A DNA stretch of 45,108 bases. Source: a virus. The stretch is taken from the UHGV virus genome UHGV-0324336; one strand, written 5' to 3'. Within the stretch, counting starts at the first letter, position 1; every line of letters begins with the position of its first letter. Under the pieces are notes generated by a model, which was not told the DNA's origin, made no database searches, and worked only from the letters and a program-made list of their open reading frames with translations. The position numbers and the translations under genes are program-made. Shown here piece after piece: positions 5,014 through 25,510 of the stretch.

Positions 5014-5090
<77 letters not shown>

Positions 5091-5091
5091 A

Positions 5092-5168
5092 CTGGACCGC
5101 CACCGGGGACTCGAACCTCGCACACTCAACTTAAAGGGTTGACGCTCTTTCCTGATGAGCTAGTGGCG
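5092..5168 (-). tRNA. tRNA-like gene with atypical anticodon loop (CCUUUAA; Lys-UUU-like but C33); possible pseudo- or non-canonical tRNA
   Basis: Manual fold: acceptor CCGCCAC/GTGGCGG, D-arm GCTC…GAGC, T-loop TTCGAGT, CCA encoded, but position 33 is C and T-stem has an A·C mismatch. Confidence 0.5.
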
Positions 5169-5169
5169 G

Positions 5170-5245
5170 CTGGTGGCCCTTGCTGGATTTGAACCAGCGA
5201 CCTGGCGATTATGAGTCGCTCGCTCTCACCACTGAGCTAAAGGGC
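5170..5245 (-). tRNA. tRNA-Ile2/Met type (anticodon CAU), ileX/ileZ-like
   Basis: Manual fold: GGCCCTTTAGCTCAGTGGTGAGAGC…CTCATAA…GGTTCAAATCC…GGGCCACCA; closely resembles recalled E. coli ileX (lysidine tRNA-Ile2). Confidence 0.75.
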
Positions 5246-5351
5246 CGGGCGCAGGATAATAACGTTACGAAATCAATGTTGCAAGCATTCAAAAATCACC
5301 CTTATCTCCTCCACCAGCGCATTCACCATGTCTATCCGAGATAAGTGGCAC

Positions 5352-5373
5352 AAAAAACCCGCTTGTGGGCGGG
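5352..5373 (-). terminator. intrinsic terminator (tR'-like) downstream of the late promoter
   Basis: Minus strand reads CCCGC-ccacaa-GCGGG followed by TTTTTT; lies ~50-70 nt downstream of the predicted late promoter. Confidence 0.55.
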
Positions 5374-5428
5374 TTTTGTTTGCTTTTGCCATCACGTACA
5401 AAATCGGCAAAATATCAGATTTGCATGA

Positions 5429-5457
5429 AATATATGCCTTTCAATCTACTTTTGCAA
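5429..5457 (-). promoter_or_regulatory. candidate late promoter (pR'-like) with probable qut region
   Basis: Minus strand -35 TTGCAA (5452-5457), 17-nt spacer, -10 TATATT (5429-5434); immediately 3' of the Q-like gene and 5' of the terminator. Confidence 0.45.
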
Positions 5458-6130
5458 CACTTTGCTTTGAAAATGCCGCCTTTTGTTTTGAACGTGTTCT
5501 CATTACAAACAATAAAGCCTCACTATCAAGTCGGTGAAAAATGTGTTTCATTGCAACCCAGTGACGAGTAAATGTTTTGGACCAGTTTTTAGTTGTCACT
5601 CCCGCCAGTAATGCCAGCTCCTGGTATTCATAACCTTCCCCACCAAAAAGTTCTGCTTTTACTGCCTGCGCCGCCAGCCAGATTAATTTTTTCAGGCGTT
5701 CCTGCGTTTTCCCTGCAATTTTTCTGGTACCGGATTGAGTATTAAATTCATTCCACGCCCACTGTGTTATCGCGATCTGATATTCCCAACAAATAATCCC
5801 GCTGTAACACCACAACAACCAGGCTTTATGATGTTCTTCAAGAGACAGAACTGCCCGTCGCCATGATGATGTCGAAAACTCAACCTGACTTACCAGAGCA
5901 ATTGATGAGCCTTTCGCCAGTGATTGTTTTCCCGGTATCGGTGGACTATCCCGCGTTATCATTCTTCCAGTCACTTCATCGCGGTACCGGATTTTTTTAC
6001 GCCTGTAACGCCCTGTATCAAACATGGCATTCTCCTGCCAGGCTTCAAGCTGACCTTTTGTTGCCCCACTCAAATCAGCGGTAGCGATAATGAGCTGCTC
6101 ACGCACAAACTGTAAATACTGGTTATTCAT
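5441..6130 (-). CDS. putative late-gene antiterminator Q-family protein (229 aa)
   Basis: Position after rusA and before the late promoter/terminator and lysis genes; ATGA overlap with rusA; family not confirmed from sequence. Confidence 0.5.
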   Translation of the reverse strand: MNNQYLQFVREQLIIATADLSGATKGQLEAWQENAMFDTGRYRRKKIRYRDEVTGRMITRDSPPIPGKQSLAKGSSIALVSQVEFSTSSWRRAVLSLEEHHKAWLLWCYSGIICWEYQIAITQWAWNEFNTQSGTRKIAGKTQERLKKLIWLAAQAVKAELFGGEGYEYQELALLAGVTTKNWSKTFTRHWVAMKHIFHRLDSEALLFVMRTRSKQKAAFSKQSVAKVD

Positions 6131-8660: not shown

Positions 8661-8816
8661 TTACTCCTCAGGTTCGTAAGCTGTGAAGACAGCGACCTCC
8701 GTCTGGCCGGTTCGGATTCGTACCTCGCAGAGGTCTTTCCTCGTTACCAGTGCCGTCACAATGACGGTTAAACAGATGACGATCAGGGCGATTAACATCG
8801 CCTTTTGCTGCTTCAT
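8661..8816 (-). CDS. hok: Hok/Gef-family type I toxin (51 aa)
   Basis: MKQQKAMLIALIVICLTVIVTALVTRKDLCEVRIRTGQTEVAVFTAYEPEE matches the Hok consensus (…CLTLL…LTRKSLCEIR…REVAAFMAYE); in-frame upstream extension in the ORF track may be mok-like. Confidence 0.8.
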   Translation of the reverse strand: MKQQKAMLIALIVICLTVIVTALVTRKDLCEVRIRTGQTEVAVFTAYEPEE

Positions 8817-9463
8817 AGCCTGCTTCTCCTTGCCTTTCGGCACGTAAGAGGCTAACCTAGATTTGCCGTTCATAGATTGAGCCTCAGATTAATGTTAAGC
8901 GTCTTGCAGGACGCGTAATGTTAACTGGGGCTTTTCTCTATCTGCCTTTGGTGTTCATGCCTGAGGCAGATAGCCTCAAGCACCCGCAGCAATTCTACTT
9001 AACTCACGTCACCTCGCCAATATAAAATCAATCAGAAAGGCGATCCATAAGAACAACAGCAAGGCAATAAATTGCCATTACAGCAGCAATAGCCAGCGCA
9101 CATTTGAGAACCAGCACCACAACCTCCTGTATTGGACGTACACCAGTCCTGATAAATATGAGGCTGTCTCGTCAGTGATTCAATACAACTATTGGGTATA
9201 GTTTCTGTGATTTTGTTCTGTAGAAATGGAACACAACAACCAGTCACCACCAGCACTTCTTTAAATACGCCAAGTCCGACGCAAGCTAACTTTCTAGTCC
9301 GCTTTGAGCGAGAAGAGGAAGTTCATAATTATTACCAGTACAGCGTATTACTAATTATTTTTACACTGAAAGCATTGAGGTGAGAAGGGGGTTTTTATGC
9401 TTGATTTAATTATAAAATTGCAGGAAAGTGACCTTGTATCAGCTGATGATGAGTGGGTAAAAA

Positions 9464-10843
9464 ATGTGGAAAGATAAGTATATTTGTCATAAATGCGTGA
9501 ACGATAAATATGTCATGCAGCATATAATAAAAACCGGAAATAATGTTCGGATTTGCTCTTACTGCAAAAGGAAGCGTAAAAACATCCACCTCAAATATAT
9601 TCTCAAGATGATGAATGAGGTTTTTGAGTACTACTATGATATGTATGAGGATATCTATGATTCCGGGCGCGGTGATAGCGCGCAGGATGTCATCTGCGGA
9701 GAACTGGGCGTCGAATGGGACGTAGCTGAAGATATTTATGAATTTCTTTGTGATGAATATAATCCGCATAACGATTATGACTACATCCGGTATAATGATG
9801 GGTTTGTTTATCGGCACATAAATCACTATAGCGGAGAGCTTGCGCATACCTGGAGTAAAGCCACTGACTCCCTTATGAAAGAAACACGATATTTTAACCG
9901 TGAAGTTAATGATTTCCTGGATTCACTTTTCAGTGATATCGATAAACTAAAAAACAGAGACAGTAATTCACCGATAAAAACTCTGACTGATGAGGTTCAT
10001 CTTTTTCGTGCAAGGGTCTTTGAGGACCAAGAGGAAGTAAAGCAAGCCTTGGAGCAGCCCGAGAAAAATTTTGGACCTCCCCCATCAACTTTGGCTCGGT
10101 CGGGCCGTATGAACGCACAGGGGATTTCAGTATTTTACGGTGCAACCTCAGTGAATTTGGCAATTGCTGAAGTAAGGCCGCCCGTCGGCAGTATTGTAGT
10201 AACGGCCTGTTTTGTACCGTTACGCGAGCTAAAAGTGCTGGACATTTCTGCCCTTGACTCGATTAGTTTCGGCTCAGGTAGTAAATTTGATCCTCAGACT
10301 CGCAAAACCAGTGAGCGCGCGATTTTTTTCAGTACGCTTTCCCGTAAGTTGACGCTTCCTACTTTTGGAAAAAGGCAGGACAGTGATTACCTCATCACCC
10401 AAGTGGTTGCCGATTACCTAGGTGACCGAAATAAATTTAAGCTTGATGGTGTCAGCTTTAAATCTACCCAGGTAGATGCCAACGGTGAGGATGCTGAGAT
10501 AGGATATAATGTCGTTCTGTTTAATAAGTCTTCCGGCGTCAGGCATGCCGCAGATAAATCTCGCCGATATAATGTTGAGATGTATGAACACATCGAAGAT
10601 GACCAGTATGCTTTTGTTCCGGAAATTCAGTTAATAGTTGAGGAACAAATAAAACCGAGACATATGGGTTCATTTTCATCCTCGCATGACAAAAATGATG
10701 CACTACTGTTGAAAACCAACAGTATGACTTATCATAAAATTACTGGTGTAAAATACCAAACAAGTGAGACGGAGATTCATCAGGGAGATAGTGTTCGAAA
10801 ACAAGAGCCACCTCAGAAATTCGATGACCTGATGGACTTCTGA
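9464..10843 (+). CDS. RES-domain protein (putative NAD+-targeting effector) with N-terminal CxxC…CxxC zinc-ribbon domain
   Basis: Candidate RES triad R215 (GRMN), E236 (LAIAEV), S331 (DGVSFKS) with intervening YG; N-terminal C8-x2-C11…C31-x2-C34; AT-rich codon usage. Confidence 0.65.
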   Translation: MWKDKYICHKCVNDKYVMQHIIKTGNNVRICSYCKRKRKNIHLKYILKMMNEVFEYYYDMYEDIYDSGRGDSAQDVICGELGVEWDVAEDIYEFLCDEYNPHNDYDYIRYNDGFVYRHINHYSGELAHTWSKATDSLMKETRYFNREVNDFLDSLFSDIDKLKNRDSNSPIKTLTDEVHLFRARVFEDQEEVKQALEQPEKNFGPPPSTLARSGRMNAQGISVFYGATSVNLAIAEVRPPVGSIVVTACFVPLRELKVLDISALDSISFGSGSKFDPQTRKTSERAIFFSTLSRKLTLPTFGKRQDSDYLITQVVADYLGDRNKFKLDGVSFKSTQVDANGEDAEIGYNVVLFNKSSGVRHAADKSRRYNVEMYEHIEDDQYAFVPEIQLIVEEQIKPRHMGSFSSSHDKNDALLLKTNSMTYHKITGVKYQTSETEIHQGDSVRKQEPPQKFDDLMDF

Positions 10844-11257
10844 TCATCCGTTATATCAGGGTAAACTATTATTAAAGATGATGTGAGGGCAGTTAAGGAA
10901 GGAATTCACCCTGTATCGCCTGTATCGCGTTACTGGCGTCCCTTGATACCAAGCGGGCAGATTGGTGAACAGGCACGTCTGTTTGAGCGAGGAGCTGGCT
11001 TTGTAGAATGCCTCAAGGGATAAAAACACCTTATTTACGCAACTTACTGCGAAAGGACCATGGCTTTGCTGGCTTCGGATACGTTGCTGAGTTCCTCAGC
11101 CACCTTAAGTAACCGGCGTTGTGTTTGATGATAGGATTGTTAGTATGGAATATGAGAATTACCTCTTGTATTGTATAACACTTCGGCCCCATATCAATAC
11201 CAGTAACTCTTAATCTTTCAAAGCCATGTGTCAGATCAAGTCACGACTAATGCAAAT

Positions 11258-11288
11258 AATAGACAGATATCATTCTAATCTGTCTATT
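11258..11288 (-). terminator. perfect 11-bp inverted repeat hairpin between convergent genes
   Basis: AATAGACAGAT-(9 nt)-ATCTGTCTATT, 17 nt 3' of the HExxH gene stop; AT-rich, no clean U-tract. Confidence 0.35.
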
Positions 11289-11304
11289 ATTATGTCAAAA
11301 TTAT

Positions 11305-12228
11305 TTAGTGTAATTCCGAAAGGAGCCTAGTAACAAACTCTTTATATGTTGTAGCTTTATAATCAAGCTTACGGTTTTCCTGTCTCATCACCGCGATGAG
11401 AAGACAAGCTGTAAAACACCAGAAGGGCGATGAATCTGAAAGGTTGTACCCCCCTATCATTGTTTGAATCCTTACTGCTATAGATGGATACTCTTCACCA
11501 CCCCATTTATCGATATCTGATGTTAAAGCGTGTATAGTAAAGGCGGCAAGTGTTATCCCCATTGCTCGTTTTTGCATGACCTCTTCATAGGTATGCCCAG
11601 CTTTTTTAGCATAGACTCCGACGCCCTTAGTTATATATTCACGAGCCCAAGAGTCACAGGCTAACTCTTCTTCATCCTTCTCTTGGGGATTTTCATGTTT
11701 TTTTTCTTCGGCTCGTGCTTGAACATGTTTATACTCATGAAGTATAGAAAAAGACAATGCTAATGCTACTAGATCAAAAACAGCCTGTTCTTGAATATTA
11801 TTCAAACTATCTCGCGCATCTGTTGGAAAAGGAATATCTTGAGGCCATGTAATATCAGCCGTATTCGCAACGCTTAGCAAAGACTTTGAAATATACAAAT
11901 GCTGTTTATAATTTAGTTCAAATTGGCCACGTTCTTCATCAGATTCTAAAGCCGACTCTAACGTCACACCTAGTAAGCATGCTTTTACTAGGGCTGGAGC
12001 ATATGTCTCAATCGTAAACCATGTACTAAACCCAAATAACCAAAAGAAATCGATAGTTTTAGAGTCAAACTCGATGCGCCTACTAGTTGCATTCATTGTT
12101 GATCCTAGGGCATCCTCTGCAAGTTCGACCGTGTGTTTATAGCTCTTCCAGGTCTGACAAAGTTCATCAGCATTCTCAGGAACAGCCCCTCTTAGGAGGT
12201 TTAAAACTATAGTATCTAGTGATGGCAT
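11305..12228 (-). CDS. putative zinc metallopeptidase (HExxH), possibly Lit-like phage-exclusion protease
   Basis: Single HEYKH motif at residues 164-168 of 307 aa; size and motif position close to e14 Lit (297 aa, HExxH ~160-164, recalled); AT-rich. Confidence 0.5.
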   Translation of the reverse strand: MPSLDTIVLNLLRGAVPENADELCQTWKSYKHTVELAEDALGSTMNATSRRIEFDSKTIDFFWLFGFSTWFTIETYAPALVKACLLGVTLESALESDEERGQFELNYKQHLYISKSLLSVANTADITWPQDIPFPTDARDSLNNIQEQAVFDLVALALSFSILHEYKHVQARAEEKKHENPQEKDEEELACDSWAREYITKGVGVYAKKAGHTYEEVMQKRAMGITLAAFTIHALTSDIDKWGGEEYPSIAVRIQTMIGGYNLSDSSPFWCFTACLLIAVMRQENRKLDYKATTYKEFVTRLLSELH

Positions 12229-12605
12229 AAAACTGACTCCTTATTCTACTTGTTATAAAACAACGATGTTATGTTAATCACCTATTTTAGATGTTCATAG
12301 AATTCTTAAGACATCAATCATAGCAAAATAAAAAGCATATAGTGCTATATTAAACCACTAGCAAAAATGAATATAAAATGTGGTTTTGTCCGTTCCAGCC
12401 ACAAGCGATCAAGGGAGAGGAATGAGGTTTTCAATGAGCGTATAGTAAGCATTTTCATTACAACTTAGAAGCATCGAGTAAATATCATTACTAATCCAAT
12501 ATGACTATGATGAACTAAGCTTCAGATTTATAATTATCATCATAACTAGAAGCTAGGTTGCTGAAAAGGAAGTCAATAGCATCCCTTAACTTAAAACCTA
12601 TGATT

Positions 12606-13139
12606 CTATATTCCTTTTTTATAATCTCTAGACAAAAAATCAAACAGGACTTTACGTTTGTAAAGTAACGTAACCCTTACATTTTCAAGATCTGACTCCT
12701 TAATATCAGGTTTGCCATCATAATAATTTCTCCGCATTGCTTTTAAATAATCACCGTAGTCTCTTAAAGCAACTGATGTGTCAGTTAAACCTAAAAGCAA
12801 AAGCTTCGACTCTGCAACTGTCAAGCTTTTAAAATTGTCAAATAAATCTAATTTTGTTTTATTTAACTCCTCTTGCCTTTCTCTGGTAAGATCCAATCCC
12901 TTTTGTTCCTTATTTCTAACCCATTCAATTATCAAAGCCCAATAGCGTAAGGATATATGTGTCATATCCTCAATTTGAGTGCTTACAGATTCTAATGAAT
13001 CATAATAGCGACGACTTTTATCTTTATCAAATTCATGTTTGTGATTCATTTTTGAAATAATAAATGTACCTGTCAGCGTTATTATACCACCAAATCCAAT
13101 CTTCACAGCCGTATCAACAACTTCCACCCAGGTTGTCAT
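12606..13139 (-). CDS. hypothetical membrane-anchored protein (177 aa)
   Basis: N-terminal TM helix (VKIGFGGIITLTGTFIIS) then charged helical domain; AT-rich island gene with own upstream gap. Confidence 0.55.
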   Translation of the reverse strand: MTTWVEVVDTAVKIGFGGIITLTGTFIISKMNHKHEFDKDKSRRYYDSLESVSTQIEDMTHISLRYWALIIEWVRNKEQKGLDLTRERQEELNKTKLDLFDNFKSLTVAESKLLLLGLTDTSVALRDYGDYLKAMRRNYYDGKPDIKESDLENVRVTLLYKRKVLFDFLSRDYKKGI

Positions 13140-13424
13140 CCAAAACTACCTCTTGATGTTATTAAACACTCTACTAAACCAATGCATTGGAAACTAATTA
13201 TTTCTTACGCAAATACATATTCTAATATTATGTCTTCTACTAGAACCAAAATCAATCATTAGTGAAAGTGAAATAAAAGCGACATGGGCATAATGCTGCT
13301 GAGTATTGATCAGCAATTAGTTATGGATGAACGTCCTCTCTTGGCACAAAGCGGACAACCACGCTAGCTCTACCCTGTGCCACAAAATGTCAATTTGCAT
13401 CTGAACTAATGCACTTTAATCTCG

Positions 13425-13847
13425 TCACTTCAATAAATACCGAACATCCCCCTGATAAAACGACAATATGCGCTGCATAACTTCACTCTTCCGGCACTCG
13501 CGACAGATTATGTTCTGACGCCTGTCGTAGCGACGTATTTCTCCGTCAGGTAATGACCAGATAAGGTCCGGATCAACCGCAGATGGTTTCTTCAGCTTTG
13601 CCCTTGAGAGCTTTTTACGGGCATTTTGCCAGTCCTTACGCGCCTGTTCAGACGGGAATAACCCGTAACCAGAGTTGTATACATCGCCGCTGGCAACCAG
13701 CTCTCTTGCGAGAACGCTCATCAGATATCTTGTCGCACCTGTTTTGACTTCCAGTTGCCGTAACGTCTCACGCCCACTCTGGCGTACGAGTTCAACAACC
13801 TGCCCTTTAATTTTTTCTCGCTCTTCTTGTGTAAAAACTTTTGCCAC
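13425..13847 (-). CDS. hypothetical protein (140 aa) downstream of replication initiator
   Basis: ORF track; possible winged-helix segment; occupies the position of a helicase loader but has no Walker motifs. Confidence 0.45.
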   Translation of the reverse strand: MAKVFTQEEREKIKGQVVELVRQSGRETLRQLEVKTGATRYLMSVLARELVASGDVYNSGYGLFPSEQARKDWQNARKKLSRAKLKKPSAVDPDLIWSLPDGEIRRYDRRQNIICRECRKSEVMQRILSFYQGDVRYLLK

Positions 13848-18262: not shown

Positions 18263-20704
18263 ATGAGCACTGATAAAGAAGAATTTGCACTATATTGCGA
18301 AGCAAAAAATGACAAAGTAAGAAAACGCCTAGGAATTAAAGGTGGTTTTTACTGGACTACAGCAAAAAAATTATCTGTTGCAATCTCCCGCTGCATTACC
18401 GCAATGGATGACAACGATTATGATGAAGACGACTTTAAAAAACCCGTCCGCGTCAATTTGCCCGTTGTTGACGACCTTCCGCCAGAAGGCGTGTTTGATA
18501 CTGAATTCTGCAACCGCTATGAAAAAGGCGGGAAAGATGGCATCACAATGACATTTATCGGCCCTTCCCCCTCTGTTCAGGACAAACCAGCCAGCACTGA
18601 CAATACCAACATCAACGGCGAAGACATGACTGAGATTGAGGAGAGCATGCTTCTGCCTGTCTCCGGTCAGGAACTGCCCATTCGTTGGCTTGCTCAACAC
18701 GGCAGCGAAAAACCAGTAACGCACGTTTCACGCGACGAACTCCAGGCATTACACATTGCACGGGCTGAAGAACTACCGGCTGTTACTGCCCTGGCTATTT
18801 CGCATAAAACCAGTCTGCTCGACTCGCTGGAGATTCGCGACCTCCACAAACTGGTTCGTGACACTGACAAAGTTTTCCCTAATCCTGGTAATTCAGACCT
18901 GGGACTAATAACTGCTTTTTTCGAAGCATACCTGGACGCTGACTACACTGATCGGGGTCTGCTGACAAAAGAGTGGATGAAAGGAAATCGTGTTTCACGC
19001 ATCACCCGCACGGCTTCCGGTGCTAATGCTGGCGGTGGGAACAAAACCGATCGCAATCCGAATTTAGTACACACCCTCGACACACTGGATGTGGAGATTG
19101 CAGCAGCCACACTTCCGATGGATTTTAATATTTATGAAATTCCGGGCAGCGTTTATCGTCGCGCAAAAGAAGTAGTCCTGAACAAAGAAAGTCCGTTCAA
19201 AGAATGGTCCGCAGCACTTCGTGCAACCCCGGGTATTCTGGACTATTCCCGCGCCGCTATTTTTGCACTTATCCGAAGCGCACACCCTGAATTTTATCAC
19301 TACCCGGGACGCCTTCAGGGGTATATCAACGCCTATTTGACGGAAACTGATCACGAGAACCCCAGCAAGGAAACTCTCACAGCTGCCCGGCATACGCCGG
19401 AAAAAGATATCCTGGAAGAAATTAACCGCGAGGTGGTTACTGAGCGTGAAACAGAAGAAGAAAAACCACAACCATCTGACGCAATGGCAGGTGAACAGGC
19501 AACAACTGAAACAATGGAACCGGATACAACTGAACATGGCCAGAACGCGCAGTCGCTGGATGCTCAGTCGCAGGTGAGTTCCGCTAACCAAGTAAAAGTC
19601 ACCGCTGACGAAGTAAACAAAATTATGCAGGCAGCCAATATCAGCCAGCCTGACGCCGATAAGTTACTTGCTGTATCGCGTGGTGAATTTGTTGAGGGGA
19701 TTAGCGACCCTAATGATCCGAAATGGGTCAAGGGGATCCAGACTCGCGATTCTGTGAACCAGAACCAGCATGAATCGGAACGGAACGACCAAAAAGCGGA
19801 ACAAAACAGCCCAAATGCGTTACAAAACGAGCCAGAAACGAAACAATCCGAACCAGTAGCGCAACAGGAACCGGAAAAAGTCTGCACCGCCTGCGGTCAG
19901 AGCGGTGGCGGCAACTGCCCTGATTGTGGCGCGGTGATGGGCGACGCAACATACCAGGAAACATTCGATGAAGAGAATCAGGTTGAAGTTCAGGAAAATG
20001 ATCCGGAGGAAATGGAAGGCGCTGAACATCCACACAAGGAGAACCCTGGCGGCAATCAGCATCACGCCAGCGATAATAAAACTGGCGAGGCGACAGATCC
20101 CTTAATTAAGGTGAATGGTCATCATAAGCTCACATCCACCAGCAGAGCGGGGATTCATCTGATGATCGACCTTGAAACCATGGGAAAAAATCCCGATGCC
20201 CCAATTATCTCAATAGGCGCAATATTTTTCGATCCACAAACCGGAGATATGGGACCGGAATTTAGCAAGACCATCGATCTGGATACTGCTGGCGGAGTCA
20301 TTGATCGTGACGTCATTAAATGGTGGCTAAAGCAATCACGTGAAGCGCAGTCTGCCATTATGACCGATGAAATCCCGTTAGATGATGCACTACTGCAATT
20401 GCGGGAATTTATCGACGAAAACTCCGGTGAATTTTTTGTTCAGGTCTGGGGTAATGGGGCCAACTTCGACAACGTGATTTTACGCCGTTCATACGAACGA
20501 CAGGGTATCCCCTGCCCGTGGCGCTACTGCAACGATCGCGATGTACGCACAATCGTTGAGCTGGGGAAAGCCATAGACTTCGATGCCAGAACTGCTATCC
20601 CATTCGAAGGTGAGCGCCATAATGCACTTGATGACGCTCGTTACCAGGCAAAATACGTTTCAGCTATCTGGCAAAAACTGATCCCGAGTCAGGCTGATTT
20701 TTAA
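18263..20704 (+). CDS. RecE/YdfE-family protein with C-terminal DEDDh 3'-5' exonuclease domain (813 aa)
   Basis: C-terminal DnaQ-like motifs: DLETMG (Exo I), NGANFD (Exo II), HNALDDARY (Exo III); acidic low-complexity middle; CTACG…CPDCG zinc-ribbon-like element. Confidence 0.65.
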   Translation: MSTDKEEFALYCEAKNDKVRKRLGIKGGFYWTTAKKLSVAISRCITAMDDNDYDEDDFKKPVRVNLPVVDDLPPEGVFDTEFCNRYEKGGKDGITMTFIGPSPSVQDKPASTDNTNINGEDMTEIEESMLLPVSGQELPIRWLAQHGSEKPVTHVSRDELQALHIARAEELPAVTALAISHKTSLLDSLEIRDLHKLVRDTDKVFPNPGNSDLGLITAFFEAYLDADYTDRGLLTKEWMKGNRVSRITRTASGANAGGGNKTDRNPNLVHTLDTLDVEIAAATLPMDFNIYEIPGSVYRRAKEVVLNKESPFKEWSAALRATPGILDYSRAAIFALIRSAHPEFYHYPGRLQGYINAYLTETDHENPSKETLTAARHTPEKDILEEINREVVTERETEEEKPQPSDAMAGEQATTETMEPDTTEHGQNAQSLDAQSQVSSANQVKVTADEVNKIMQAANISQPDADKLLAVSRGEFVEGISDPNDPKWVKGIQTRDSVNQNQHESERNDQKAEQNSPNALQNEPETKQSEPVAQQEPEKVCTACGQSGGGNCPDCGAVMGDATYQETFDEENQVEVQENDPEEMEGAEHPHKENPGGNQHHASDNKTGEATDPLIKVNGHHKLTSTSRAGIHLMIDLETMGKNPDAPIISIGAIFFDPQTGDMGPEFSKTIDLDTAGGVIDRDVIKWWLKQSREAQSAIMTDEIPLDDALLQLREFIDENSGEFFVQVWGNGANFDNVILRRSYERQGIPCPWRYCNDRDVRTIVELGKAIDFDARTAIPFEGERHNALDDARYQAKYVSAIWQKLIPSQADF

Positions 20705-20762
20705 TGTTCAACCCTAATTGCCGCTAACCGTATATAGTTAGCGGCGGTTATGAGATATAGCT

Positions 20763-20966
20763 ATGAGCAGCTTATTTTTAACCGAAGATGAATTGCTAAT
20801 ATTAACGGGCTGCAAATATGCAAGCCACCAGCGAAAATGGCTAATGGAAAACGGGCTTCCGTTCTATACCAATCGTAGTGGCAAACCGATTGTCAGCCGG
20901 AATCTATTTACCTGCAATAAAACTTTACCACCACGCGAGGTAGAGCCGAATTTTGGTGCGATCTGA
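20763..20966 (+). CDS. DUF4224-like small protein in excisionase position
   Basis: 67 aa MSSLFLTEDELLILTGCKYASHQRKWLMENGLPF…; stop overlaps int ATG (TGATG). Confidence 0.5.
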   Translation: MSSLFLTEDELLILTGCKYASHQRKWLMENGLPFYTNRSGKPIVSRNLFTCNKTLPPREVEPNFGAI

Positions 20967-21289
20967 TGGGAAGACGAAGGAAAAATCCTGAACACGAAAA
21001 ATTACCTCCAAATGTATACCCAAATAAATATAGTTATGTATGGAAACCAACATCCAGAGAATCTGTCACACTAACCGCCATCAAGGATGGTTTAGCTGCT
21101 TTATGGAAAAAGTATGAGGAAACTGTAAATAATCGCGATCGTGCAATGACATTCGGTCGCTTGTGGGAAAAATTCCTCGCCAGCGCCTATTACAGTGACC
21201 TTAGACCGATGATACAGAGTCGAAAAATCAAAGAGTTAAAAATTTTTCTTGGAATAAATGTCTTAAAATCGTACACGAAAAATCAATGA
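20966..21289 (+). pseudogene. int: integrase N-terminal fragment (arm-binding domain only; truncated tyrosine recombinase)
   Basis: MGRRRKNPEHEKLPPNVY… aligns with lambda Int N-terminus (MGRRRSHERRDLPPNLY…) but ORF stops after 107 aa; no catalytic domain (R..HxxR..Y) in any frame before the next gene. Confidence 0.75.
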
Positions 21290-21513
21290 ATTACATAACA
21301 TTAAAGAAGAATATTCCAAGCCTTCTTGAGTCTACCACCTGTTTTCAGGTGTCATTCAGACGTGATTTGCCCCAGATTGGGAAAGCACGCTTTTTTCTCA
21401 GCTTATTCCATTTTGCCTGTGTGTTGAATAATTCCACTGCAGTTATATAAAATCGGTAACGGCTGGAAATAATTCAATACTCGTACTATCGAAAGTTAAC
21501 CAGCCAGCCGCAG

Positions 21514-21552
21514 TATCCTATCATGACAAGTTACTGCGGCTTTTTACTTTTT
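21514..21552 (+). terminator. hairpin plus T-rich tract at int/tail-fibre junction
   Basis: AGCCGCAGTA-(14 nt)-TACTGCGGCT followed by TTTTTACTTTTTA on + strand. Confidence 0.35.
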
Positions 21553-21556
21553 ATAT

Positions 21557-21859
21557 TTAACGGATCAACATCCAGATCAGCAGACACGCCACCACCGGCA
21601 CAGCAAAATCCATCAGGCTTGCCACATCCCACGCGCGCGGATCAAAACCGCCCCACCACGGCATATTCATACGCTTGCCATGCCCGAACATTTCAATCCA
21701 GCGATATTCTGCCTGGGTGTGTTCACGCGCAATGAAGAACGTACAACCGGCTATCGCCCCGTAAGCCCAGTTCCCGGTAAAAAGACCAATCAGTAGCTGC
21801 GCAGCCACAGCACAAAGCGCATGAAGGAAAGGTGTTATATCCATTTTCATCCTACCCAA
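21557..21859 (-). CDS. small integral membrane protein downstream of tail-fibre genes (function unknown; exclusion candidate)
   Basis: 100 aa with several hydrophobic segments; 27 nt after the preceding fibre gene, last gene before the int fragment. Confidence 0.5.
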   Translation of the reverse strand: MGRMKMDITPFLHALCAVAAQLLIGLFTGNWAYGAIAGCTFFIAREHTQAEYRWIEMFGHGKRMNMPWWGGFDPRAWDVASLMDFAVPVVACLLIWMLIR

Positions 21860-21886
21860 TAAAACGGGGCGCTCGGCCCCTTAATA

Positions 21887-22927
21887 TTATTTAGACGCAA
21901 GCGCCGCCTCAATTGCAGATAATCTTTGTCTTAATTCTGCGTTTTCTTCTTCCAGTGCTGTTATTCTGTCGTCTGACTCTCTGGCTACCTGAACAAGCAA
22001 GCCAGTAATACCAGAATAATCTACTGTGTAATAACGTTCACCTTCTTCACCTTCCGATCCGCTTGCACCGTCCTGATATTTCATTGCGGAACCTACAACT
22101 TCCGGGATTGCTTCCAGAGCTTCCTGTGCAATGACACCAGCATAGGGCATACCGTTTTCTTTAAGCGTGTATGTATAGCCGTTCATTTTACGGATGCGGT
22201 CGGTTGCATTATCGATCACCTGAATGTTGTCTTTCAGATCCCGGTCGGAATGCTGGTTAAATGCGGTGGCATGACATGCACCATTAACGCTTAACATATA
22301 GGTGTTATCGGTATTTTTCTGCGCATAGAACATATAAGCGCCACCATCAACACCGACTTCATAAACAACAGGACGGCTGGAGTTGCCCCACAATCGAGCA
22401 GTAACACCAGCATAAGCGGTTCCCCGTGTGTTTAATGTCATGGTTGACCCATGATTGGCATATTTGATCTGTAATGTGTCGGTGTAATCAAATTTAATAA
22501 GCGCGTTACTTCCACGCTTGCTGTATGACATAAGGCAGTTACCCATTTTGAGGTATCCGCTGTCACCGGGAAAAATCATCGTACCGCCATAAAGGTTGGT
22601 AAAGTCCCAGCAAATGTTTGTCCCGTTATCGTTCAGGTTAAGGCGCGCCATTGCGTTACCTGGACTGTCTATCCATTTTTTGAGGTATAGTTCGCAATAC
22701 GCATCCTCAACACCTGCCGTCCTGTGAGTTGAGCGGAGTTTTCTCCCAAATATAGCTCCGCTAGTTGGCAATACCTGCTGATACCATGAAGCAGACCAGT
22801 CACCAACGATTTCATCTTTGCTGTCTACATATAATTTTGTTGCGTAGCTTCCTTGATCGTTTTTTAATTTGCTAACGTCGGATTTTAGCGTTTTGATGTC
22901 ATCAGGAATTACTGTCGATGTAGCCAT
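21887..22927 (-). CDS. tail fibre/spike-like protein with C-terminal S74 intramolecular-chaperone autoprotease domain
   Basis: C-terminal S-D-R-D-L-K-D-N-I motif (Ser-Lys dyad of endosialidase-type chaperone domains), then coiled-coil tail ITALEEENAELRQRL. Confidence 0.65.
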   Translation of the reverse strand: MATSTVIPDDIKTLKSDVSKLKNDQGSYATKLYVDSKDEIVGDWSASWYQQVLPTSGAIFGRKLRSTHRTAGVEDAYCELYLKKWIDSPGNAMARLNLNDNGTNICWDFTNLYGGTMIFPGDSGYLKMGNCLMSYSKRGSNALIKFDYTDTLQIKYANHGSTMTLNTRGTAYAGVTARLWGNSSRPVVYEVGVDGGAYMFYAQKNTDNTYMLSVNGACHATAFNQHSDRDLKDNIQVIDNATDRIRKMNGYTYTLKENGMPYAGVIAQEALEAIPEVVGSAMKYQDGASGSEGEEGERYYTVDYSGITGLLVQVARESDDRITALEEENAELRQRLSAIEAALASK

Positions 22928-22936
22928 TTTTCTTCC

Positions 22937-23218
22937 TCACATCCAGCCACGAAGTTGATGCTCAACAGCAACCACGTATTCATCGAATAATGACGATATT
23001 TGCGAATCATTAATGATGCGCACGTTTACAAAATATCCGTCTTCCTTAACACATACCGGTTCGCCATCTTCAGTCAGTTCTCCGGTTTCTTTGTACACGT
23101 TACCTATCACGTCAATAAGAATATCATCCTGCATCGACTCGTCATCATAATAGCCAATACTCTCCATAAAGGCCGAAAAGTCGGCCCTGTCGGCAAATTT
23201 GAGTGTTAAATCTTTCAT
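22937..23218 (-). CDS. small acidic protein translationally coupled to stf (possible fibre assembly factor)
   Basis: 93 aa; start overlaps stf stop (TAATG); 9-nt gap to next fibre gene; not lambda Tfa. Confidence 0.45.
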   Translation of the reverse strand: MKDLTLKFADRADFSAFMESIGYYDDESMQDDILIDVIGNVYKETGELTEDGEPVCVKEDGYFVNVRIINDSQISSLFDEYVVAVEHQLRGWM

Positions 23219-25452
23219 TAGATTGACTCCCCCACCTGAGCATCAGTCAATGCCTTGTGCCATATTCTGAAATTCCTGACATGACCAAATAAATGACGTA
23301 ACCCGGCTGTAGTCTGACCTCCAATACGGATAATTGCGGTGTTCTGAATACAGGACCATGTGGTTTTTGTTTCGCTGGATATATGCCCGTTACTTACTGA
23401 GCACGTAGACTGCTCTGACTTTACACGCATCCCCATAACCATTTTTTCAAGCGATGCGTTTTCGTTTACCCGTCTGCTAGCTCCTCCAATATCGCAATAA
23501 GGAAATCCGTCGTAATCTGTTGAACGACCGAAGCCAAGAATAATAGCCGCTCCGGTTTGATGACCGCCGGTATCAAAAACACGTGGCGCTGCATTTGGCG
23601 TTTTATACCAGTTCTTATGTACCTCACAAAGAACCGTAAAAGGAAGATTATAAAGATTATTCTTAATTGGAACTGTAACTATATCGCTTGCGCGGGTCGC
23701 CGCCGTCGCTCCTGATATAATAAAAGATGATACACAAGGCCCATCTTCTACTTGTGGGGTGGCCAGATAAATATAGTCACCAGATACGGTTGCCCCGCTC
23801 TGCTTAGGAGAATACTGTATCTGAGAGCCTATTTTTAACTCCCCATCAATTGCCTGAATTGTTGCCTCTGCAAAAATCCATCCGGTAGCTTCGTCCTTTC
23901 TGACTCTCGCTGTAATCCTTGAGGCAGCACCGCCTGTCATATTAATTTCAAGCGTTTGTGTATCAATATACGCATCACCAAGAAAAGTTGTTGCGCTACC
24001 GTCATATTTATCAAACCGGATACGCAACCTTACCTGCAGTTCTGTTTTAAAACGACATGAGGTTGTCACGTGTTTATTATCGCCTGAGACATCAACTGAC
24101 TTTGTTGCAGCAATTGATGCCATATTAATGGCTGAGGTTTGCCCAATCAGAGAATCGTTGCAGACAAACTTTCCATAGGTAAAACCAAAATTATCCGTCC
24201 CTGTTTCGGGCACATCCATATTTGACGATCGCCCCCAACTGGCAGGGCTTTCCGAATTGAGCATGTAGTTTGTTCTTTGCCCCTCAATAAGCAGGCCATC
24301 ACGTTCAAATCGTGGCTCGTCAATGGCAGCCTCTGTCAGCACACCAGATTTATTAATATAGGTTGCTTTCGATGCACGTTTAAACTTAACAATCTTGTCG
24401 CCAGGCATCGTTATTTCGTCGTCACCAATAACAATCTTTTTATATGATGGCGAAAAGCCCGTAATCATATCCAGTGAATCGTTAAACGGTATCCACACAT
24501 CAGGCAGCGGCTGTAAGACATATTTATACGGATCTGCTGCCTGGCTTGCATACTCTCTGGCTGCGTCTTCACTTGCTTTTGCAGCGGTCTGGCTTGCAGC
24601 GGATGCTTTCGCCGAGTTGGCCGCCGCAGTTTCGCTGGCTTTGGCATTCGTTTCGCTGGTCTTCGCTGCCGTCTGGCTGGACTTTGCGTTAGTTTCACTC
24701 GTCTTCGCAGCTTTCTGGCTGTTAGCCGCAGCAGTTGCTGATCCAGCTGCTGAAGTCGCAGAACCGGCTGCCGCGCTCTCGCTTTGGGCTGCTGCAACCT
24801 GGCTGTTTTTTGCCGCAGTTTCACTGGCTTTGGCATTCGTTTCGCTGGTTTTCGCTGCCGTCTGGCTGGACTTTGCGTTGGTTTCGCTCGTCTTTGCGGC
24901 TGTCTCGCTATTTTTCGCGTTGGTTTCTGATTTTTTGGCTGCTGTCGCGGAGTTTTCTGATGCAGTCTGTGAGGTCGCTGCCGCCTGTGCACTATTAGCT
25001 GCATTCGTTTCTGAGGTTTTCGCCGCGTTCTTCGATGATGCCGCTGCAGTTTCGGATTTCTTTGCCGCCGCTGCGCTCTGAGAGGCGGCTTCGGCGTTGC
25101 GTGCCGCTTCTTCCACCATTTCCTCAAAACGACGCAATGCCTCCGGCATGACATCATCTTCCGTCATGGCACCGAGAAAATCATTCAGCGTACCTGGTCT
25201 GGAACCTTCATAGACGGTAATGGTTCCGGCATGTGAAGGCGGAAAACCTTCAACAAGCAGGATAACGCTGTACTGGCCATACTCAACATCCATGCTGTAA
25301 CGCCCGGCTTCATCCGGATTTTCAGAGGCCACCGTGTTCACCAGTACCGTGGTGCTGTTACGCTTTGCCTTCAGTTGAATAGTGCAGTTCTGTATTGGTT
25401 TTCCCGCACCATCTTTCAGCACACCTGAGATTTTTACTGCTGCCATATCCAC
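23218..25452 (-). CDS. stf: side tail fibre Stf (lambda-like N-terminus, non-lambda C-terminal LamG/ConA-like lectin domain)
   Basis: N-terminus MAVKISGVLKDGAGKPIQNCTIQLKA… matches lambda Stf; Ala/Ser/Thr-rich helical repeats; C-terminal …LFGHVRNFRIWHKALTDAQV typical of LamG-type domains. Confidence 0.8.
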   Translation of the reverse strand: MDMAAVKISGVLKDGAGKPIQNCTIQLKAKRNSTTVLVNTVASENPDEAGRYSMDVEYGQYSVILLVEGFPPSHAGTITVYEGSRPGTLNDFLGAMTEDDVMPEALRRFEEMVEEAARNAEAASQSAAAAKKSETAAASSKNAAKTSETNAANSAQAAATSQTASENSATAAKKSETNAKNSETAAKTSETNAKSSQTAAKTSETNAKASETAAKNSQVAAAQSESAAAGSATSAAGSATAAANSQKAAKTSETNAKSSQTAAKTSETNAKASETAAANSAKASAASQTAAKASEDAAREYASQAADPYKYVLQPLPDVWIPFNDSLDMITGFSPSYKKIVIGDDEITMPGDKIVKFKRASKATYINKSGVLTEAAIDEPRFERDGLLIEGQRTNYMLNSESPASWGRSSNMDVPETGTDNFGFTYGKFVCNDSLIGQTSAINMASIAATKSVDVSGDNKHVTTSCRFKTELQVRLRIRFDKYDGSATTFLGDAYIDTQTLEINMTGGAASRITARVRKDEATGWIFAEATIQAIDGELKIGSQIQYSPKQSGATVSGDYIYLATPQVEDGPCVSSFIISGATAATRASDIVTVPIKNNLYNLPFTVLCEVHKNWYKTPNAAPRVFDTGGHQTGAAIILGFGRSTDYDGFPYCDIGGASRRVNENASLEKMVMGMRVKSEQSTCSVSNGHISSETKTTWSCIQNTAIIRIGGQTTAGLRHLFGHVRNFRIWHKALTDAQVGESI
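24623..24900. repeat. two ~89-bp near-identical direct repeats 189 bp apart inside stf
   Basis: GCCGCAGTTTCGCTGGCTTTGGCATTCGTTTCGCTGG… at 24623-24711 and 24812-24900; encode repeated AAKTSETNAKxS units. Confidence 0.7.
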
Positions 25453-25510
25453 TCCACAAAAAAGCCCGCCTGAACCGGCGGGCTGTCATAACACTGTGTT
25501 ACCTGGCTAA

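Follow-up and report, generated by a model that had tools for sequence, protein, structure and literature searches.

A predicted Lit-family zinc metalloprotease encoded in the accessory region of a lambda-like prophage: a probable latent abortive-infection protease

Lit, an E. coli 'suicide' protease active against phage T4, is a textbook abortive-infection system, and all knowledge of it comes from the Lit protein of the e14 prophage and from a single trigger, the Gol peptide of T4 gp23. According to a review (PMC3014915), e14 Lit is an HExxH zinc protease that stays latent until the Gol segment of gp23 binds to domains II-III of EF-Tu. Cleavage of EF-Tu by Lit at Gly59-Ile60 follows, translation stops and the infection is aborted (PMC3014915). 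The virus genome UHGV-0324336, whose 45,108 nucleotides are called the window here, contains a 307-codon ORF on the minus strand with an HExxH motif. A sequence-only reading of this ORF suggested a metallopeptidase-like protein, possibly a Lit-type exclusion protease, and left homology to Lit open. In this study, we investigated whether the product is a Lit-family protein and what role it may have. The gene and its two motifs are as follows.

11305..12228, minus strand: gene of the predicted Lit-family (Peptidase U49) zinc metalloprotease, ATG start, 307 aa
11725-11739, minus strand: HEYKH codons (residues 164-168), predicted zinc-binding and catalytic motif, by direct reading and alignment to HEISH 160-164 of e14 Lit
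11653..11670, minus strand: codons E187-E188-L-A-C-D192, acidic motif common to e14 Lit (EEREAD), candidate third zinc ligand

Family membership, conserved residues and predicted fold

A regular-expression search found exactly one HExxH and one HxxxH in the 307-aa protein, both of them HEYKH at residues 164-168, as the sequence-only reading had stated. Given the composition of the protein, chance alone would yield about 0.02 HExxH motifs. The motif by itself is weak evidence, and the weight is carried by the profile matches. The Pfam family Peptidase_U49 (PF10463) was matched at 30.5 bits against a gathering cut-off of 23.9 (E 3.7e-7; residues 96-237 on model positions 29-164 of 202), and no other Pfam family, including M78/ImmA and the other HExxH families, was found at E<=1. 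The NCBIfam model PRK09672, 'phage exclusion protein Lit', was matched with an E value of 2.2e-54 (residues 7-305 on model 11-302 of 309), and the PADLOC Lit model with 1.3e-18 (residues 15-306 on model 18-285 of 290). By the coverage of these two models, the protein is colinear with Lit over its full length as a single domain of ~300 aa. Both the window protein and e14 Lit matched phrog_34061. BLASTP against e14 Lit, taken from MG1655, gave 20% identity over 270 residues (E 4e-7), and the same alignment paired HEYKH with HEISH at 160-164 and EEELACD with EEREAD. The sequence-only reading had described e14 Lit as a 297-aa protein with its HExxH near residues 160-164, and this was correct. These results indicate that the window protein is almost certainly a member of the Lit family (Peptidase U49), and the family-level homology that had been left open is now established by Pfam, NCBIfam, PADLOC and BLASTP.

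The window protein reached 184.7 bits on PRK09672, below the equivalog cut-off of 274 bits. Its clade relatives scored 175.6-206.1 bits, whereas the positive control, e14 Lit, scored 349.8 bits on PRK09672 and 374 bits on PF10463. By these scores, the protein belongs to the Lit family but is not an equivalog of e14 Lit. Since the score lies below the equivalog cut-off, the same substrate and trigger as in e14 Lit are not to be assumed. With this score and a single characterised relative at 20% identity, exclusion of T-even phages via EF-Tu cleavage is an extrapolation. The assignment itself is already known to annotation pipelines: the identical protein WP_021575733.1 is named 'phage exclusion protein Lit family protein' in RefSeq, and standard pipelines label the gene correctly.

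We then compared the protein residue by residue with e14 Lit (b1139, from the cryptic prophage e14 of E. coli K-12), the cell-death peptidase that founded the Peptidase U49 family. In an alignment of 18 relatives and e14 Lit, 28 columns were invariant between the clade and e14 Lit. H164, E165, H168, E187, E188, D192, K220, R221 and A222 were invariant in the 18 clade members and e14 Lit, and also in 59 aligned clade members, among which 46 columns did not vary. The other columns invariant with e14 Lit included P17, E18, W63, W70, Y76, W128-P129, P133, P135, P248 and R253. Thus, the two proteins are alike in being prophage-borne single-domain proteins of 307 and 297 aa, with HExxH at 164-168 and 160-164, with invariant E-E-x-x-x-D, K-R-A, W-P and further positions along the full length, and with matches to the same Pfam, NCBIfam, PADLOC and PHROG models. 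They differ in their neighbours, which are a 177-aa gene and a RES gene in a lambdoid accessory region here but ymfD/ymfE and intE at the integrase end of e14. The conserved residues suggest that the window protein is a catalytically intact zinc metalloprotease, and from gluzincin architecture the E187/E188/D192 region is a candidate for the third zinc ligand.

The AlphaFold (AF2) model of the Lit-like protein had a pLDDT of 94.2 and resembled zinc metallopeptidases, the best match being M48 BepA. The predicted fold is thus that of a zinc metallopeptidase (zincin). The likeness to M48/M56 and other gluzincins (BepA, Ste24/ZMPSTE24, BlaR1, neprilysin-type M13) is at the fold or clan level only, with 11-16% identity and no sequence-level family match, and the window protein is devoid of their transmembrane or TPR parts. 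A PDB sequence search found nothing at E<=10, so that no solved relative was detectable by sequence.

We also considered whether HExxH could have arisen by chance in an ORF that is non-enzymatic or decaying. HExxH is short, and the gene is rare, being present in 4 of 5,426 E. coli genomes. However, the profile matches are full-length, the motif is invariant in 59 homologues, and the zincin-like model is confident. In addition, all four enterobacterial copies (4/4) are intact with 307 codons and show dN/dS of 0.27-0.36, indicating that the gene is under purifying selection, i.e., maintained. The profile matches, residue conservation, structure model and selection data refute this explanation, and its probability is close to nil.

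Prophage setting and the block shared with a 177-aa gene

The features around the Lit-like gene are listed below.

9464-10843, plus strand: RES-domain gene, 459 aa (Pfam RES E 5e-14), convergent with the Lit-like gene
11255..11291, minus strand: hairpin with a 14-bp perfect stem and 9-nt loop, 14 nt after the stop codon; possible terminator or insulator facing the RES gene
12229..12605, minus strand: AT-rich spacer, 377 bp, 31% GC, with AAGGAG ~8 nt before the ATG
12606-13139, minus strand: co-travelling 177-aa gene; predicted long hydrophobic N-terminal helix, then a four-helix bundle
~10977..13355, minus strand: mobile two-gene block (177-aa gene, spacer, Lit-like gene, hairpin), approximate extent from blastn

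The region of the Lit-like gene was found at 99.8-100% identity in the same four complete E. coli genomes of the 5,426. In strain PF9285, it lies within a lambdoid prophage at tRNA-Ser/mtfA. The early-right order, on the minus strand and from right to left in the window, is Cro/CI, YdaT, replication protein, DUF977, 177-aa gene, Lit-like gene, RES gene (on the opposite strand), hokD, DUF968, RusA and Q. The Lit-like gene shares its strand with this early-right operon. Its GC content is 40.2%, compared with 31% for the upstream spacer and 50.1% for the entire window, which bears out the earlier description of the gene as AT-rich. It is an accessory gene of a lambda-like prophage, located between the replication genes and the hokD/Q region.

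The convergent neighbour that the sequence-only reading had called RES is the 459-aa ORF listed above. The RES module (~9296-11078) was found at 97% identity in other E. coli genomes that are without the Lit-like gene, indicating a separate piece of cargo within the same hotspot. The RES protein also gave a sub-threshold match to HEPN/RES N-terminal domain 1, and there was no Xre-type antitoxin neighbour. About 600 bp from the RES gene is an ORF for a hokD-type type I toxin (8661-8873, minus strand), annotated as such in the near-identical prophage of PF9285. Within 4 kb, the window thus holds three toxic or suicide-type functions, namely Hok, RES and Lit-like.

The hairpin expected 3' of the gene was present 14 nt past the stop codon. 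RNA folding gave an energy of -17.4 kcal/mol with z = -3.7 against shuffles. Its stem is A/T-rich without a clean U-run, and a consensus terminator scan did not call it. The hairpin falls within the block conserved with Enterobacter and Klebsiella. Upstream, the spacer had a mean column identity of 81% among four enterobacterial copies, and it presumably holds the Lit-like gene's own promoter. A promoter scan found 18 sites against 13.2 +/- 4.3 expected; the spacer contained only 9-of-12 promoter-like matches, none of them convincing. The description of the gene as monocistronic held in part: the 377-bp spacer upstream and the absence of a same-strand gene downstream agree with it, but the co-directional 177-aa gene co-travels with the Lit-like gene as a block and no promoter could be assigned with confidence. 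An Rfam scan of 10700-13500 gave a single match, psRNA2 at 11156-11331 on the plus strand, a stretch that overlaps both the hairpin and the gene's 3' end. Its 24.8 bits are far below the gathering score of 65 (E 0.002), and the match is most likely due to chance.

We next examined how the Lit-like family is distributed among phages. A tblastn search of the Lit-like protein against 50,697 phage records gave no match, and its model gave nothing at E<=0.001 in the BFVD viral structure library. Sequenced phage genomes contain essentially no members of the family. A 2026 preprint (10.64898/2026.02.27.708500) reported Lit mostly on plasmids and unclassified regions and rarely in prophages, with a single P2-like instance. 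The part of the window at ~21200-45108 carries long minus-strand ORFs (1159, 853, 744, 641, 533 aa and others), and regions matching this part are annotated as prophage tail fibre genes in other genomes. It has the appearance of a second structural module of prophage type and differs from the HK97-type structural genes annotated upstream of the matching prophage in strain PF9285. No complete E. coli genome covered at least 80% of 19500-25500, which indicates a mosaic or tandem prophage arrangement at this junction that is absent from that E. coli collection.

The 177-aa protein had no Pfam or NCBIfam match. Its best 19-residue hydropathy mean was 1.56, at residues 10-28, and its AF2 model (pLDDT 90) matched only generic helical bundles. 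Enterobacter, Citrobacter and Klebsiella have copies of the gene with 96%, 91% and 92% identity, respectively, each of them ~400 bp upstream of the Lit-like gene. By blastn, the two genes form one continuous DNA match of ~2.2-2.4 kb, at 88% with an Enterobacter P2-like prophage (window ~10977-13345), 83% with a Klebsiella island (~11181-13356) and 82% with a Citrobacter contig up to the end of that contig. The block follows ogr in the P2-like prophage of Enterobacter roggenkampii, it follows DUF968/IS110 in a lambdoid prophage of Citrobacter freundii, and in Klebsiella it lies in a common island that carries AlpA and a DUF927 primase. The gene order and the ~380-400 bp spacer are kept in these three settings and in the E. 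coli lambdoid prophage of the window. The 177-aa gene is found at 5074-5607 of locus L003, 5063-5596 of L007 and 4001-4534 of L059. Such a two-gene block is unreported in the literature searched.

The portability of this block bears on whether the protein could instead be a prophage regulatory protease, of the ImmA/IrrE-like or anti-repressor kind, or another non-defence protease. HExxH is followed ~20 residues on by the acidic E-E-x-x-x-D, a layout that we take to resemble superficially that of ImmA/IrrE (M78), and the gene is near the prophage immunity and replication region. However, Pfam gave no match to Peptidase_M78 or to another HExxH family at E<=1, and there is no adjacent HTH repressor partner. 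The same block in a P2-like prophage and a satellite-like island, together with relatives at non-phage loci, fits portable cargo better than a regulator bound to the circuitry of a single phage. We consider a regulatory or other non-defence role very improbable.

We also examined whether the Lit-like protease and the putatively membrane-anchored helical-bundle protein might form a two-gene system, in which the bundle protein might serve in sensing or regulation, as an antitoxin-like restraint or as a second effector. The same order and spacer recur in four unrelated element types as one continuous DNA match, and among complete E. coli genomes the same four carry both genes. In each pair, dS is broadly comparable for the two genes, as co-inheritance would predict. 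Both genes are under purifying selection; the dN/dS of the 177-aa gene is 0.08-0.13, and that of the Lit-like gene is about three times as high. On the other hand, each family occurs without the other. The 177-aa gene was absent from all 43 species-level Lit-clade loci outside enterics, and the e14 Lit and the plasmid-borne Lit clade are without such a neighbour. Conversely, in Salmonella enterica (L064 4001-5476) a 177-aa gene with 82% identity is present, the homology to the window is limited to this ORF, and an unrelated 181-aa gene comes next at the same ~400 bp spacing. In Vibrio, the 177-aa gene is also followed by unrelated genes, and no Lit relative was found in the Salmonella or Vibrio loci carrying it. 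In addition, the long AT-rich spacer does not resemble operon-like coupling, and the co-travel may just reflect the recent spread of one block. A two-gene system is considered unlikely. The PDF...EVK motif of the Salmonella 181-aa protein points to a PD-(D/E)xK nuclease, and PADLOC gave a weak match of this protein to PD-Lambda-3_A (E 0.003).

Relatives and partner genes outside the enterics

The closest relatives of the Lit-like protein are the Enterobacter, Citrobacter and Klebsiella copies, which are 79-88% identical. The next are 307-314-aa proteins of alpha-, beta- and gamma-proteobacteria with 50-60% identity over the full length. These and the window protein belong to a ~307-aa clade, mostly of alpha- and gamma-proteobacteria, that is separate from e14 Lit. 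A profile search with this clade found 572 clusters at the 50% identity level among 1.84 billion representatives; in the best 150 of the 572, nearly all the full-length ones were 297-334 aa, mostly ~300-320. The family is thus small and compact, with a single domain. A third clade, at ~30% identity, is carried by large conjugative plasmids of Klebsiella, Salmonella and others. These plasmid-borne proteins (IncHI and other large Klebsiella/Salmonella/Citrobacter plasmids) share with the window protein the RefSeq name 'phage exclusion protein Lit family protein', the 924-bp gene and the absence of a T5orf172 partner, as they stand alone; they differ from it in the low identity and in residing on conjugative plasmids rather than prophages.

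The ~307-aa clade (P. aeruginosa, Acetobacter, Sinorhizobium, Bradyrhizobium) is the window protein's nearest kin outside the enterics, but it often has a different neighbourhood. In P. aeruginosa, Acetobacter and Sinorhizobium, a T5orf172/MUG113 gene encoding 167-176 aa begins 10-22 bp past the Lit-like gene. In Pseudomonas and Sinorhizobium it is itself followed by a third gene of ~170 aa, which either overlaps it or lies 3 bp from it. We counted these partners in 43 loci from GTDB species representatives, 37 of which were assessable. The T5orf172 gene was found 10-25 bp downstream in ~21 of the 37 (about 57%) and the third gene in about 10 of the 37. The nearest non-enteric relatives, of Bradyrhizobium and Nitratireductor (59% identity), carry both. 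A tblastn search 3' of the window gene for a decayed T5orf172 or third gene gave nothing better than E 0.5. With no remnant of a partner in the window, the enterobacterial lineage appears to have shed both genes. The T5orf172 gene could be a functional partner or a homing-endonuclease-like hitchhiker, and the literature searched holds no mention of a Lit-linked T5orf172 operon.

The T5orf172/MUG113 protein is GIY-YIG-type with a Cys-rich C-terminus, and the third protein contains a WRLRNNLFHG (R-x4-H) motif. The partner genes lie at 6943-7968 of L005, 6968-8007 of L011 and 6935-7438 of L008, with others among L014-L056. We examined whether the 177-aa protein of the enteric block is kin to genes of the Pseudomonas locus. 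BLASTP gave E 16 with the ~170-aa third gene and E 7.8 with the 365-aa upstream gene, and both candidates were rejected. MAFFT paired RRNYYDG with LRNNLFHG, but the pairing is not significant. In P. aeruginosa (L005 1-3875), the Lit-clade operon adjoins two Gabija-like-domain genes (AAA_15/OLD-like TOPRIM and UvrD helicase), and the other flank carries the conjugative-transfer genes TrbI, CagX, VirB8 and TrbL. These neighbours place the Pseudomonas operon in a defence islet on a conjugative element.

The partner genes raise the possibility of a larger system. Rather than a stand-alone Lit, the ~307-aa clade may be the protease arm of an undescribed module comprising a Lit-like protease, a T5orf172/GIY-YIG nuclease and a ~170-aa protein with a HEPN-like motif. 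This arm would have been cut loose in the Enterobacteriaceae and re-paired with the membrane-anchored four-helix-bundle protein, and its substrate might be a partner or something other than EF-Tu. We regard this as speculative, with a low probability.

The distribution of the clade also bears on whether the fold and chemistry of Lit are here put to other biology, namely those of a defence effector with a non-EF-Tu substrate and a trigger other than a T4-like capsid peptide. The 20% identity to e14 Lit and the sub-equivalog score are consistent with such a change. The clade is centred on alpha-proteobacteria, pseudomonads and their relatives, where T-even phages are not an obvious threat, and the non-catalytic positions evolve fairly fast, with dN/dS ~3x that of the neighbouring gene. 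However, the 28 columns invariant with e14 Lit are spread over the whole length, beyond the active site. The switch-I region of EF-Tu is conserved across bacteria, and given this conservation a family-wide EF-Tu target is plausible. We consider a different substrate and trigger rather unlikely.

Proposed mechanism and its meaning

Taken together, our analysis suggests that the gene probably encodes a Lit-family zinc metalloprotease of a lambda-like prophage that acts as a latent abortive-infection protease. By analogy with e14 Lit, the protease would stay latent in the lysogen until a second phage infects the cell. A late protein of this phage, presumably a structural one, would act as the trigger by generating or uncovering the substrate of the protease. 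An essential translation factor of the host, with EF-Tu as the leading candidate, would then be cut, and the resulting stop of protein synthesis would abort the infection. An anti-phage, abortive role of the protein is likely in our view, and EF-Tu as its substrate is proposed more tentatively, at somewhat less than an even chance. Cleavage of EF-Tu, activation by Gol and exclusion of T-even phages late in infection are established solely for e14 Lit (PMC3014915), and the literature searched contained no paper characterising another Lit homologue.

The context is in favour of a defence role. The gene shares a prophage accessory region with hokD and a RES-domain gene. Its relatives occupy the end of a P2-like prophage, an AlpA/DUF927 island and a site next to a locus with Gabija-like domains on a P. 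aeruginosa conjugative element. Against stand-alone action, T5orf172 accompanies ~57% of the species-level relatives, and the ancestral form may work in a multi-gene system. As the Lit-like gene is on the strand of the early-right operon, it may be expressed on induction too, in which case the prophage would need a means to avoid self-triggering.

Since pipelines already label the gene and only 4 of 5,426 complete E. coli genomes carry it, the practical consequences are small. Solely the non-enteric linkage to T5orf172 and the enteric two-gene block went unmentioned in the literature searched. A homologue at 20% identity from another type of prophage, directly testable in E. coli, provides a second test case for Lit biology. 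It would address the question of whether sensing of the EF-Tu/capsid-peptide complex is family-wide or a peculiarity of e14.
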